Shown: piece by piece, positions 11,233 through 15,757 of the stretch | Layout: each line of letters opens with the position of its first letter | Numbering within the stretch: the first letter of the stretch is position 1 | Source of the DNA: an uncultured Deferribacteres bacterium | GTDB taxonomy: Bacteria > Zhuqueibacterota > Zhuqueibacteria > Zhuqueibacterales > Geothermadaptataceae | Length of the DNA: 20,884 nt | Reading direction: 5' to 3' | Assembly (NCBI GenBank): GCA_964014485.1 | Contig: CAXHAT010000143.1 | Location: 1-20,884 of the forward strand | Translations under genes and position numbers: made by a program | Notes under the pieces: model-generated | Seen by the model: the letters and a program-made list of their open reading frames with translations, nothing else | Databases searched by the model: none | Told to the model about the DNA's origin: nothing

Positions 11233-11565
11233 ATGCTCATTTATGAAGTAAATATCGCGGTTGATGCGGACGTTTTTGACGAATATCTGCTGTGGATGGG
11301 TTCGCATATCCAGGAAATGCTCAAAATCGAAGGCTTTGAGCAGGCGGCGATGTTTCAGGCAGAGGACGATGATAAAAGCGGCAAGCGCGTCAAATTGAGC
11401 GTGCATTACGGCGTTAAGGACGACAAAAGCCTACAAAGATATTTTAAGCAGGACGCTGCACGAATGCGCGCGGACGGGGTCGGGCGTTTCGGAAACAAAT
11501 TTCAAGCGTCCCGCAGGATTTTGAAACAAAAGGGCGTGTTCAGAAATGAGCTTTCAAAAAGTTAA
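11233..11565 (+). CDS. DUF4286-family protein
   Basis: RBS GGAG. Pattern IYEVNI..YLLWM..HI.EML...GF..Y...L..YF...A.RMR.DG..RFG..F.A.RRIL. Confidence 0.8.
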   Translation: MLIYEVNIAVDADVFDEYLLWMGSHIQEMLKIEGFEQAAMFQAEDDDKSGKRVKLSVHYGVKDDKSLQRYFKQDAARMRADGVGRFGNKFQASRRILKQKGVFRNELSKS

Positions 11566-12766
11566 GTTTGAAAATGCGCAGGGCGAGCTGCTCGCCGCGC
11601 GCATAGATTTTCCGCCGGATAATCAGCCGGAAGCTTATGCGCTTTTTGCTCACTGCTTCACTTGTACAAAAAATTTAAGAGCGGTTGGGCACATCAGCAG
11701 CGCATTAACGCAAGCGGGATGCGCCGTGCTGCGTTTCGATTTTACTGGCCTGGGCGAGAGTGAAGGCGATTTTGCCGACGCCAATTTTTCGTCAAACGTC
11801 GACGATCTCGTTGTGGCCGCCAATTTTCTGGCGCAAAACTACAAAGCGCCGAAAATCCTGGTCGGGCATTCCCTTGGCGGCGCTGCGGTTTTACAGGCGG
11901 CGGCGAAAATTTCGTCATCCGTTGCCGTGGCGACCATCGGCGCTCCATACGACCCGCAACATGTGACGCAGCTTTTAGAAAGCAGTTTGGAGGAAATTGC
12001 CGCCAAGGGCGAAGCGGTCGTCAATCTTGCCGGGCGTTCCTTTAAAATCAAAAAACAATTTCTGGACGACCTTGAAATGACAAGCGTTTTTGAGCGGATT
12101 CGAAAGCTCGACCGGGCGCTCCTGGTTTGCCACTCGCCGATTGACGAAACCGTCGGTGTGGAAAACGCGGCACAAATTTTCAAAGCGGCCAAGCATCCTA
12201 AAAGTTATCTCTCCCTTGACCGCGCTGACCATTTACTGTCCGATTCGAGCGACTCATTCTACGTCGGGGCTATGATTGCGGCATGGGCCGCCAAGTATTT
12301 GGACGCTCCGCCAGCGCAGGATTCTTTGGAGCCGCAAGTTCCCAAGGGCGTTTTTGTGCGCACTGGAACTGAACATTGGCGCACGGAAATCCGCGCGAAT
12401 CGGCACGCGCTCATTGCGGACGAACCGATTGCAGCAGGCGGCGCAGACCTGGGCCCGACGCCCTACGACTTGCTGGTCGCCGGACTTGGCGCTTGCACCT
12501 CAATGACTTTGCGGATGTACGCCGAGCATAAAAAATGGCCTTTACAGGACGTCGAAGTTGAATTGCACCATCGAAAAATTCATGCAAAGGATTGCAGCGA
12601 CTGTGAAACCAAGACGGGAAAAATCGACAAAATCGAACGCAAAATTACCTTGCACGGCCCGCTGGACGACCAGCAGCGCCAGAGACTTTTGCAAATAGCG
12701 GATCGCTGCCCCGTGCATCGAACGTTGCATTCGGAAATAAAAGTTGAAACGACCTTGAAATCGTGA
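11546..12766 (+). CDS. Bifunctional alpha/beta hydrolase-OsmC family protein
   Basis: [14 protein letters not shown], nucleophile GHSLGG, AKHPKS, ADHLL. C-terminal OsmC domain with [19 protein letters not shown] and RCPVHRTL. Confidence 0.93.
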
Positions 12767-12805
12767 TTGAAGATAGGATCGTTTCTTGTTGCGTAAAGAT
12801 CTTTG

Positions 12806-12834
12806 TTTGACGGGATATACATGATTAACAAGAT
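12806..12834. repeat. Left arm of a degenerate 9-bp-periodic (ACAGGATTT-like) inverted repeat
   Basis: Units ACGGGATAT/ACATGATTA/ACAAGATT. 19 of 29 positions match the reverse complement of 14866-14894. Confidence 0.55.
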
Positions 12835-12888
12835 TGATTTGAATTAAGACTTGATTGTATCATCTGATTAATGCGGCATAAAAATCTG

Positions 12889-14863
12889 TTAGCAATCAAT
12901 GATGACCAATGGAATATGGGAGCTTAAAAATGAAAATTACCCGACTGCCTTATCTGCAGATTTCTTCTGTGCCGCCTCTTCTGATATTTGTGAGTATTTC
13001 ACTTTTCAATCTTCAATTGCTTGCTGCCCAAACCGGAACGCTTAAACTCACTGTTCTTGATAGCACAACTAATCAGATAGTACCTGCTCGGGTTGAAATT
13101 CAAGGATCTGATGGGGAGTATTACGTCGCCGAGGACGCTTTGCTCGTGGGGGGAGATTGTGACATGAGCGATCACGGTGCTGGGCTTCATGACCTTGAAA
13201 CCACACTAGCCAGCTTTCACCGCGAAGTCGGGAATCCATACACTCGATCAACTCAGTTTTATAGCAACGGTAAATCGTCAATCTACCTACCATCGGGTAC
13301 CGCGGCTATAAGAGTGTATAAGGGCCCTGAGTATGAACTACATGTCGAAAAGGTGGATATTCAGGCCGGCAAAACCACTCAACACGAAATAAGAATATCC
13401 CGATGGGTCAACATGCCTGAGAAAGGATGGTACAGCGCAGATGATCACTTGCATATTCCAAGGCCATCTAAAGAACTTAATCCCTATATCATGAAAATGA
13501 TGCAGGCAGAAGACATCCATGTTGGCAACCTTCTCCAAATGGGTAAAGTTGTAAACTTCAATATTGCCCCACAATACTCTCATGGTGAAGAAAGCTATTA
13601 TCAGGAAGGTGGATATATTCTGGCAGCAGGTCAGGAAAATCCGAGGACACATTTTTTAGGTCACACAATCACGCTCGGCGCCAAGACAGCTCTCCATTCT
13701 CCAGAGGAATATCTGATTTATCGATTGCTTTGGCAAGAAGCATCTAAGCAAGGGGCAATTAACGGCTACGCTCATTATGGAAGTATGTTCAGTGGTCAAT
13801 CCGGTCTGCCGTTGGTATTACACCACAATTTAATGCACTTCATAGAGGTCTTACAATTCAATCGAAGTGACTATGAAGCGTGGTATGAAGTTCTCAATTT
13901 AGGATTTCGCGTAACTCCGACAGCTGGTACAGATTATCCTTGTGGCAGTAACCTGCCAGGGCATGAACGTTTTTACACGAAAGTTGATGGTGATTTCACC
14001 TATAATAATTGGCTGGATGGTGTCCGACGTGGGAAAACTTTTGTCACAACTGGACCTATTTTGGAATTCCGGGTCAATGGCCATGATATTGGCGAAGAAG
14101 TTATGTTAGAAGGCCCTGATTCGCTACGTATAGAAGGGAAGGTCATATTTGACAACCAATTGGATGATTTGCAGAGAATCGAACTCATTGAAAATGGTCA
14201 GGTGGTCGGAAGTTTTCCTCGCACGAATATGGAAGGCAACATTAGCTTTAGTATTAATCATCCCATGAAGGAGACTTCTTGGTTGACCCTTCGAGGATAT
14301 GGAAACAAACTAAAACAAAGTATGTCCGTGAGGCCATGGCACTTTAGAAGTTTTAAGCCGATGAGTACAGTCCACTCAGCCCCTATATACGTGACAATCA
14401 AAAATGCTTCACCGTTTACCTCACATTCCCGCACAAAGGTGCTAGCGCGAAAATGGTTGGCACATTTAGAAGACTTGGAAACAATGCTGGAAGAAGACAA
14501 TATCGAATATTTGGCTCAGAAACTTTTAGACCCCGAATTTGATGCGGTACCAAAAGACATCCTTATCAAAAATCGATTGGCTCTTTTCGATGAAATCCGA
14601 GATGCCAAGGATTTCTTTATTCAACTTTCGGAGTAGTGCATTATATTCTTGAATGTGGTCAATTATCTTCAGAGTTCTTCGGTCGATGCAAGGGGGGGGT
14701 TTGAGACGACTTTTTGTCGCAGTTTCCGAAGGCTAACATTTGGGTCAACTTGACGCCGAAAAGCTGGGCGCGCGTTTCAGATTTTGAAGCATATACGCCG
14801 TTAGGATTAGGAGTACGTCAAAATTATGCGTTTCGAGTGCTTCGGCATAAGTTACACTTACCG
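12889..14863 (+). mobile_element. Putative solo integron gene cassette (~1.97 kb)
   Basis: The 5' core G|TTAGCA (12888-12894) complements R'' GGCTAAC at 6 of 7 positions. One gene, then an attC at 14731-14869. The segment is visibly AT-richer than its flanks. Confidence 0.72.
12930..14636 (+). CDS. Secreted CehA/McbA-family (PHP-like) metallohydrolase
   Basis: Start chosen at ATG 12930 after GGGAG (the ORF is open from 12909). Signal peptide, VPARV and KGPEY N-domain, GWYSADDHLH, GHT, GYAH, TAGTDY, GKTFVTTGP and HSAPIYV. Confidence 0.82.
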   Translation: MKITRLPYLQISSVPPLLIFVSISLFNLQLLAAQTGTLKLTVLDSTTNQIVPARVEIQGSDGEYYVAEDALLVGGDCDMSDHGAGLHDLETTLASFHREVGNPYTRSTQFYSNGKSSIYLPSGTAAIRVYKGPEYELHVEKVDIQAGKTTQHEIRISRWVNMPEKGWYSADDHLHIPRPSKELNPYIMKMMQAEDIHVGNLLQMGKVVNFNIAPQYSHGEESYYQEGGYILAAGQENPRTHFLGHTITLGAKTALHSPEEYLIYRLLWQEASKQGAINGYAHYGSMFSGQSGLPLVLHHNLMHFIEVLQFNRSDYEAWYEVLNLGFRVTPTAGTDYPCGSNLPGHERFYTKVDGDFTYNNWLDGVRRGKTFVTTGPILEFRVNGHDIGEEVMLEGPDSLRIEGKVIFDNQLDDLQRIELIENGQVVGSFPRTNMEGNISFSINHPMKETSWLTLRGYGNKLKQSMSVRPWHFRSFKPMSTVHSAPIYVTIKNASPFTSHSRTKVLARKWLAHLEDLETMLEEDNIEYLAQKLLDPEFDAVPKDILIKNRLALFDEIRDAKDFFIQLSE

Positions 14864-14869
14864 TTATCC
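14731..14869 (+). mobile_element. Integron attC site (139 bp)
   Basis: R'' GGCTAAC, 5-nt spacer ATTTG, L'' GGT[C]AACTTG[A]CGCCGAA, imperfect stem, L' TTCGGCATAAGTTACA, 6-nt spacer CTTACC, R' GTTATCC. The 5/6 spacers and the extra C and A bases are as in canonical attC sites. Confidence 0.8.
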
Positions 14870-14894
14870 GATCGATCCTGTAAATCTTGTCGAA
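14866..14894. repeat. Right arm of the 9-bp-periodic inverted repeat
   Basis: ATCCGATCG/ATCCTGTAA/ATCTTGTCGAA, the inverted counterpart of 12806-12834. Confidence 0.55.
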
Positions 14895-14953
14895 GAATGA
14901 ATTGTCCAAAATAATCGATATTTTATTTCAATCAGGGATAGGGAGCAGGAAGC

Positions 14954-15724
14954 ATGAAAACGATTGCTGTTACGCACACGGTTTCGCCTCATATTAATGA
15001 ATGCGAATTGACTTACATGGAGCGTGAAGAAATTGATTATCCCAACGCCTTAAAGCAGCACGGCGCTTACAGCGAAACTTTGCGGCGCTGCGGAGCGGAA
15101 GTTTTCAACCTGGAGGAAAACACCGACCATCCGGACAGCATTTTTGTGGAAGATAACGCCGTTGTCGTCGACGAAATAGCGGTCATCACCCACATGGGCG
15201 CCGAGTCGCGCCGGGCGGAAGTGGATACAATGGCTGACTATCTGGCGCAATACCGGGAGGTCGTCCGAATTGAAGCGCCGGCAACGATTGAGGGCGGCGA
15301 CGTGATGCGCGTTGGAAAAAAAGTCTTTGTCGGTTTAAGCACGCGTACAAATCAAGCAGGCGTTGACGCATTGCGTGATAAATTAGCGCCGTATGGCTAC
15401 ACTGTGACCGGTGTTGCGACGCCGGGATGTCTCCATTTAAAAACCGGCATTACCGTCCTCAATGACGAGACGCTGATCGGCAACACGGGCTGGGTCGACA
15501 TGTCGGCGTTTAAAGACTTTCGCGTTATCGCCGCCGCTCCGGACGAGCCGTGGGCCGGCAACGCGCTGCGGGTGAACGACAAGGTCATTATGCACGAAGG
15601 GCACGTTCGCGCCATCGAAGAAGCGGAAAAATTGGGAATTTCCGTTGAGCGAACCAACATCTCCGAATTCATGAAGGCCGAGGCGGGTTTGACGTGTATG
15701 AGCATAGTTTTTCAAAAAAAATAG
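14954..15724 (+). CDS. Dimethylarginine dimethylaminohydrolase (amidinotransferase superfamily)
   Basis: PDSIFVED, SRRAE, EGGDV, GLSTRTN, LHLKTG and the catalytic Cys in GLTCMS. A purine-rich RBS lies upstream. Confidence 0.92.
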   Translation: MKTIAVTHTVSPHINECELTYMEREEIDYPNALKQHGAYSETLRRCGAEVFNLEENTDHPDSIFVEDNAVVVDEIAVITHMGAESRRAEVDTMADYLAQYREVVRIEAPATIEGGDVMRVGKKVFVGLSTRTNQAGVDALRDKLAPYGYTVTGVATPGCLHLKTGITVLNDETLIGNTGWVDMSAFKDFRVIAAAPDEPWAGNALRVNDKVIMHEGHVRAIEEAEKLGISVERTNISEFMKAEAGLTCMSIVFQKK

Positions 15725-15729
15725 AACTT

Positions 15730-15757
15730 GTAGAGACGCGATGCATCGCGTCTCTAC
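15730..15757. repeat. GTAG-type REP-like perfect palindrome, copy 1
   Basis: GTAGAGACGCGATGCATCGCGTCTCTAC, a 28-bp perfect palindrome 5 bp after the stop codon. Confidence 0.9.

Follow-up and report, generated by a model that had tools for sequence, protein, structure and literature searches.

Homogeneous attC repeats are characteristic of sedentary chromosomal integrons, such as the Vibrio superintegron. An attC site is defined by its R boxes, by a central spacer that stays unpaired, by extrahelical bases close to L'' and by a terminal structure that varies (PMC5027507). Isolated cassettes, known as SALINs (single attC sites lacking integron-integrases), originate from recombination of attC with a genomic attG site (5'-GWT-3') by the integron integrase IntI, as shown in Escherichia coli; the same work counts 3400 SALINs in 2469 of 21,105 genomes, 622 of which have more than one (Loot et al., preprint 10.1101/2022.09.11.507474). 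The window analyzed here is the entire contig CAXHAT010000143.1 (C143; 20,884 bases) from the 8.4-Mb assembly GCA_964014485.1 (465 contigs, estimated to be 97% complete) of an uncultured marine bacterium assigned to the Zhuqueibacterota. A 1975-bp segment of this contig is most likely an element of the same kind, i.e., a single integron cassette that resides outside any integron and originated by insertion at a secondary G|TT site. The segment consists of one coding sequence, for a CehA/McbA-family metallohydrolase, and one attC site, and the contig contains neither an integrase nor a second attC.

The attC site and its family

The attC site starts 94 nt after the stop codon of the hydrolase gene and is 139 nt long. 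The family to which it belongs was first seen when a DNA search of the host's own genome matched this stretch elsewhere; BLAST and nhmmer searches identify 11 full-length attC-like copies of 130-139 nt at 10 loci on as many contigs. The copies resemble one another from TAAC to GTTA, whereas their flanking sequences are unrelated. A covariance model built from this genome's own copies (R1) scores the 11 family members at 102-137 bits and gives the window site an E-value of 1e-28; it is the single match on the entire contig, the runner-up scoring 9.7 bits with the filters off.

RNAalifold analysis of the 11 copies predicts a terminal TAAC/GTTA helix, an unpaired spacer (alignment columns 8-11 and 129-133), a long L-box helix and a 55-nt central part. 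Two positions on the 5' (R''-L'') arm of the consensus are invariant: column 16, an unpaired C that interrupts the long helix, and column 23, an A located in an asymmetric loop. Their counterparts on the bottom strand, which is the one recombined, are G and T, respectively. Compensatory changes are found in 11 of the 27 consensus pairs, and 90.8% of the cells are paired on the consensus structure. Sliding the partners by 1-3 columns lowers this share to 28-44%, and on each of five measures the observed value is out of reach of all 500 column shuffles. The TAAC/GTTA ends pair in 9-11 of the 11 copies, and the AAC and GTT triplets are present in both boxes of the window site, GGCTAAC and GTTATCC. 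The family structure carries the defining features listed in PMC5027507, and on these grounds the element is a real attC site. The innermost consensus helix (alignment A1, columns 34-41 with 98-105) relies on G-U pairs in 10/11 and 7/11 copies, and these pairs could form on the top strand or in a transcript but not on the recombined bottom strand.

In most of the 11 cases in the genome, a low-GC block of 1-2 kb with co-oriented open reading frames (ORFs) ends at the element, and the GC content recovers immediately after it. If a circular cassette is cut at G|TT, the inserted cassette should begin with the complement of its own R'' box. An exact reverse complement of R'' is present within 2.1 kb upstream in six of the nine copies with a TAAC box, as opposed to 4 of 68 mismatched controls in which each copy was assigned the heptamer of another copy; the two copies with a TAAT box (C2 and C60) were excluded from this comparison. 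In the pair of attC sites on contig C45, the R' box after the first site reads GTTATGA and is exactly complementary to the R'' box of the next one, 870 bp on.

Analysis of related genomes connects the element with integrons proper. Of 60 same-class relatives, an intI gene above the cut-off is present in 26 and R1 matches in 15, one to three each, 20 in total, with scores of 29-57 bits; two of the 20 share a contig with intI. In the relative G056, a single R1 match is located 2 kb from intI. The same-family relative G008 has four R1 matches (57, 31, 27 and 19 bits), each directly after a co-oriented ORF, and this array lies 7.4-11.4 kb past the 3' end of an intact intI (434.7 bits versus the cut-off of 265). 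The position of the G008 array beside an intact integrase gene implies that integrons of this clade have the element as their attC type; such an array is seen in G008 and not in the genome of the window. In the G008 locus (C56:416000-434000, L081), intI and the cassettes are read in the same direction, with the array beyond the 3' end of intI, so that the layout is not the classical divergent one.

A competing interpretation is that the 139-nt element is some other structured repeat that resembles attC, for example, a repetitive extragenic palindromic (REP) element, a miniature inverted-repeat transposable element, a terminator or one end of some other mobile element. Several observations weigh against the attC assignment and in favor of such a repeat. 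Folded alone, the window copy is no more stable than shuffled sequences (z of -0.44 for the top strand and -0.10 for the bottom strand), and an Rfam scan of positions 12000-15500 with E-values up to 10 yields two matches, both at chance level. The RYYYAAC/GTTRRRY pattern is followed only in part, with one deviating position in R'' and two in R'; the G-U pairs of consensus helix 3 work on the top strand only; and the genome is rich in other palindromic repeats. Furthermore, R1 was built on copies from the same genome, and the structure used in the pairing test was derived from the same alignment. An unrelated repeat would nevertheless have to be always located at the 3' end of a low-GC block of co-oriented genes, to have TAAC/GTTA ends and unpaired positions on the correct arm, to show an excess of left-end complements over the controls, and to be arrayed beside an intact intI in G008, all with no accompanying transposase or terminal inverted repeat. 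This alternative therefore appears extremely improbable.

The junctions and the interrupted host repeat

The boundaries of the cassette are delineated by the junction heptamers together with a step in the GC content (Table 1). The cassette has a GC content of 0.436, compared with 0.503 and 0.537 in the adjoining 2 kb upstream and downstream, respectively; along the contig, the values are 0.41-0.46 across positions 12501-15000 and 0.47-0.59 over the rest. Both junctions read G|TT, in agreement with 5'-G|WT-3', the crossover on the right being between G14863 and T14864. The left heptamer, GTTAGCA, matches the complement of R'' (GTTAGCC) at six of seven positions and is one of two matches with at most one mismatch in the upstream 4 kb, and the only intergenic one. 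The resident R' box, GTTATCC, also matches GTTAGCC at six of seven positions, but in this case the mismatch falls within the first six bases.

Table 1. Features of the cassette and its surroundings in the window
Feature	Position	Strand	Evidence and remarks
Alpha/beta-hydrolase fused to an OsmC-like domain, upstream host gene	11546..12766	+	Pfam OsmC, Hydrolase_4, Abhydrolase_6; normal GC; outside the cassette
REP-like palindrome, left-arm core	12809..12826	+	3 mismatches to the left-arm pattern; 0.002 chance matches expected per 110 nt
Left junction heptamer GTTAGCA, crossover G12888/T12889	12888..12894	+	6/7 versus the reverse complement of R''
Gene cassette	12889..14863	+	Junction heptamers and GC step
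CehA/McbA-family metallohydrolase, 568 aa, signal-peptide-like N-terminus	12930..14636	+	NCBIfam NF038032
attC, 139 nt; R'' GGCTAAC 14731-14737, R' GTTATCC 14863-14869	14731..14869	+	Model R1, 114.4 bits
REP-like palindrome, right-arm core GATCCTGTAAATCTTGTC	14874..14891	+	Exact; sole pattern match in the window, 0.02 expected by chance
Dimethylargininase-like host gene, amidinotransferase fold	14954..15724	+	NCBIfam NF045660, 207 bits (below the cut-off of 340); Pfam ADI, DDAH_eukar; normal GC

The 30 nt to the right of the crossover belong to a REP-like family of the host. The family has an 18-nt degenerate core with 48 matches in the genome, 21 of which have an inverted partner 14-128 nt upstream; its members conform to the pattern TTTTGACnGGATnnACnGGATC ... 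GATCCnGTwAATCCnGTCAAAA and are usually intergenic. In the window, the cores of the two arms are 2047 nt apart, and subtraction of the 1975 bp of the cassette leaves 72 nt, which is within the range of 14-128 nt. Because the spacing of the arms is normal once the cassette is removed, the cassette interrupts a host repeat between its arms. The split repeat can be regarded as an internal empty-site control. Such an interruption is what insertion predicts, and neither a decayed array nor a chimeric join would easily account for it. Because the interrupted element is a repeated one of the host, the case for insertion can be made from one genome and needs no sister strain.

The split repeat bears directly on the possibility that the segment is all that is left of a cassette array that has decayed or been rearranged, that is, a group of clustered attC sites without an integron-integrase (CALIN) reduced to one unit, rather than the product of direct insertion. 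Such a history would be compatible with the decayed state of intI in this genome, the two-cassette cluster on C45, the two shorter attC-like sites at the end of C129, and the division of the assembly into 465 contigs. Conversely, the normal-GC host genes on both sides, the lack of any attC-like match upstream of the left junction and the restoration of the arm spacing by removal of exactly the length of the cassette are not expected of an array remnant, and the ten loci would require ten separate histories of decay. An array remnant is thus an improbable explanation.

Direct insertion is most readily envisaged as follows. A circular cassette comprising one promoterless hydrolase gene and the 139-nt attC would have been recombined by an integron integrase, such that the folded attC reacted with a secondary G|TT in the 212-nt spacer of two host genes, within the loop region of the REP-like palindrome. 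Single-strand exchange followed by replication would then produce G|TTAGCA on the left and attC...G|TTATCC on the right. The predicted empty site reads ...AAAAATCTG joined directly to TTATCCGATCG... The intI gene would have decayed later and, because of that decay, the cassette is now probably fixed in place. Of this scenario, the identity of the attC, the boundaries, the solitary state, the split repeat and the decay of the integrase gene are shown, and the circular intermediate and the action of IntI are inferred.

The low-GC block might also have arrived within a larger segment, through ordinary horizontal transfer followed by homologous recombination, with the attC already attached and with no insertion in this lineage. 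The nearest relatives of the hydrolase (60-67% identity) are indeed spread across unrelated phyla, and the relatives of the host are too distant to date the event. These facts notwithstanding, the positions of the GC step and of the G|TT junctions agree within the limits of the spacer, the attC type is peculiar to this genome and its class, with 11 strong copies in the former and weaker copies in 15 of the 60 relatives, and the interrupted REP-like repeat belongs to a host family with 48 cores in the genome. Transfer of a larger segment accordingly seems very unlikely.

These results bear out most of an earlier reading of the same DNA. The original prediction placed an attC site about 95 bp past the stop codon, which required only small corrections of coordinates; it noted that G|TTAGCA shares GTTAGC with the complement of R'' and that the resident R' is mismatched inside this hexamer, both of which are indeed in the sequence, and it correctly described the gene as richer in AT than its neighbors and the flanking genes as ordinary. 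Apart from the two adjacent host genes, the latter include an M20 peptidase and then a periplasmic binding protein farther downstream on the same strand. Its central proposal, off-platform capture of the cassette at a G|TT, is supported by the attC family, the G008 array, the left-end rule, a cassette shared by contigs C312 and C355 (see below) and the split palindrome.

Some observations do weigh against insertion at this site. The match at the left end is inexact and, by our own arithmetic, a match of six of seven is about 7% likely by chance in the 91 nt open to the junction. The CRGM motif that occupies positions +6 to +9 of E. coli attG hotspots is absent here, with CGAT instead. The left-end rule is not followed by the cassettes on C312 and C355, which have C and A instead of G at position -1. 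The fragmentation of the assembly into 465 contigs and the presence of two attC-like matches near the end of C129 make an unassembled array or an intact intI possible. No empty site was detected in relatives, those available being too distant and devoid of shared synteny: a DNA search of 40 relatives identifies only distant matches to the upstream gene (66-67% identity) without synteny, and the downstream gene, used as a protein query against the nine further genomes of the family, gives at most 39% identity. In metagenome contigs, the upstream gene is represented by 27 loci with at most 65% identity, none of them beside the cassette gene or the downstream gene.

Contigs of three sequencing runs from one marine-metagenome study cover the stretch as short, low-depth pieces and contain no joint of an empty site or of an excised form, a result that speaks neither for nor against insertion. 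The left junction is bridged by a run contig that spans positions 12593-13543. For the right junction, no bridge with 31 nt on either side is present among the pieces listed; with only 14 nt to the left of the junction in these pieces, the right join rests on the assembly together with the argument from the REP-like arms. In run X1, the mean word depth is 8.8-9.9 on the cassette contigs (12593-14644) and 3.9-5.9 on both flanks, these values being depths per contig and not copy numbers.

A further palindrome is located outside the cassette, between the dimethylargininase-like and M20 peptidase genes. This perfect 30-nt palindrome (15728-15757, with a GTAGAGACGCGATGCATCGCGTCTCTAC core) has a summed contig depth of 171 in run X1, compared with about 4-10 around it, and is associated with many loose ends, which indicates a high-copy repeat in that community.

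The cassette gene, the integrase and the other cassettes of the genome

The ORF of the cassette encodes the hydrolase listed in Table 1; an in-frame ATG at 12909 would add seven codons. Residues 166-488 of the protein match positions 1-314 of the 315-position NF038032 profile with 183 bits (cut-off 80), no Pfam model matches the hydrolase, and a PDB sequence search gives no match. The CehA/McbA family owes its name to carbaryl hydrolases. The window protein contains the full-length domain of NF038032 with the conserved aspartates and histidines kept but, in addition, is extended at the N-terminus by a domain of about 140 aa and at the C-terminus by a helical tail of about 80 aa; these two extensions are common to its 972 homologs identified with E-values of 1e-20 or lower among 8000 candidates scored. 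Nearly all these homologs are about 570 aa long, and the best match other than the protein itself shows 67% identity. In an alignment with 21 homologs, all of the 100+ invariant columns are kept, including D171, D172, H173, H175, H245, H282 and D335, which indicates that the gene is intact. The signal-peptide-like N-terminus was judged by eye from the translation. The cargo can accordingly be predicted to be an intact, secreted metal-dependent hydrolase of the CehA/McbA type (PHP-like).

The nearest homologs from named genomes (60-47% identity) come from metagenome-assembled genomes and isolates of Lysobacterales, Binatia, Poribacteria, Flavobacteriia, Saprospiraceae and Terriglobia, and this patchy spread appears consistent with horizontal transfer. 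R1 scans around 15 hydrolase homologs in other phyla detect no attC of the window type, a result that is silent on other attC types. A home-made scan for AAC...GTT hairpins 3' of the homologs was dropped, the window's own attC not being its top candidate. The hydrolase gene is presumably transcribed from host DNA 5' of the junction. A scan for sigma-70-type promoters finds seven sites versus 5.3 expected, and zero terminator-like sites; a promoter-like site at 12834-12863, just 5' of the left junction, is not above chance.

A search with TIGR02249 finds no match on C143 and a single integron-integrase-like gene in the genome, on contig C46 (6307-7291, L009), where it is split into two pieces with scores of 234.8 and 93 bits. 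This gene has a frameshift near C46:6594-6631, an in-frame TGA and a leucine in place of the catalytic tyrosine (TMILHNVL, compared with TQIYTHVL in VchIntIA, PDB 2A3V), and is thus a dead pseudogene. There is no other intI copy in the 97%-complete assembly, and R1 detects no attC site in the first 20 kb of C46. The neighbor of the C46 intI encodes a 916-aa caspase (EACC1-type) fusion protein.

With regard to the gene content of the locus, the original prediction of a secreted metallohydrolase with no integrase nearby agrees with the NF038032 match, the signal-peptide-like N-terminus and the absence of TIGR02249 matches on the contig. The description of the cassette as solo was right in that its attC is the only one on the contig, and too strong in that the genome has at least ten loci of this kind, so that the case is less singular than proposed. 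The suggested search of the genome for intI and related attC sites was productive with respect to attC; the sole intI is dead and on another contig.

Seven cassettes of the genome, including that of the window, could be mapped by way of the left-end heptamer. They are 869-2052 bp long with a GC content of 0.39-0.46, mostly below that of their 2-kb flanks (0.44-0.54), and in five of the seven the ORF begins 20-52 nt from the left end. The contigs C312 (L023) and C355 (L025) share a block of 570-577 bp with 94.6% identity that extends from the TTAG start to the attC G and carries a DUF3817 gene; the presence of this common block in unrelated flanks indicates that the same cassette occupies two loci. 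In addition to DUF3817 proteins, the other cassettes encode pentapeptide-TIR, SMODS/AGS_C nucleotidyltransferase, 8xMP membrane and TPR proteins, a cargo that is typical for integron cassettes.

Two of the lone cassettes with attC sites of the same family, C3:33819-35325 (L026) and C260:2947-4998 (L022), carry defense-type genes: one encodes a 405-aa protein with pentapeptide repeats and a TIR domain, and the other encodes a 499-aa SMODS and AGS_C nucleotidyltransferase with a 172-aa partner. Two shorter attC-like matches of 100 nt each are located on the minus strand of C129 (21555-21654 and 22896-22995; L083), 1.3 kb apart and 360 nt from the end of the contig, and might belong to a small array that runs past the assembly.

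It is conceivable, albeit doubtful, that the genome as a whole represents a "scattered integron", with at least 11 attC sites of one homogeneous type at no fewer than 10 host loci, several of them with defense-type genes, not arrayed and with the integrase dead. Under this scenario, the secondary-site route would be the main mode of cassette storage in the clade, and hairpin-forming REP-like palindromes would be the preferred landing pads of the integrase. A search for REP-like arms beside the six other mapped cassettes gave nothing convincing, so that the landing-pad idea comes from the window case and no other.

Comparison with described integron systems

The attC type of the window shares with the canonical sites (aadA7 and the Vibrio cholerae repeats; PMC5027507) the AAC/GTT boxes, the unpaired spacer, the L-box helix, the unpaired bases on the R''-L'' arm and the variable center. 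It differs in its length, 130-139 nt being at the long end of attC sizes, in that the RYYYAAC/GTTRRRY boxes are only partly kept, and in that the central 55 nt are fairly conserved within the genome and not freely variable.

Similarly to the Vibrio superintegron, the genome contains many cassettes with closely related attC sites, of a type that is common to the class at lower similarity; taxon-specific attC types are treated in PMC8352920. Here, however, the attC sites occur one or two at a time at 10 dispersed loci instead of forming one array beside intI, and the intI gene itself is dead.

The closest match is with the SALINs as characterized by Loot et al. (10.1101/2022.09.11.507474): the locus likewise combines one coding sequence with one attC, its G|TT crossover fits GWT, the insertion is intergenic, and a host promoter could drive the gene. 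The right-hand CRGM motif of the E. coli attG hotspots is missing from the target in the window, which is located within a REP-like palindrome. In addition, the intI of this genome is a pseudogene, and the case is known from sequence alone. It further departs from the published SALINs in that the host is an uncultured marine bacterium in which at least 10 loci share one homogeneous attC type.

SALIN formation has already been published, and the window is a clean natural case of a described route of gene capture; it leaves the current understanding of integrons unchanged. The recombination between attC and a genomic site known from the E. coli experiments is seen here with an enzyme cassette as large as 2 kb, in an uncultured marine lineage about which little is known. 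The combination of ten loci with one attC type, a duplicated cassette, defense-like cargo and a dead intI may help the study of how integrons seed accessory and defense genes. Relative to the described SALINs, what is new in this case is the host lineage, the long type of attC, the many loci in one genome and the interruption of a host repeat.

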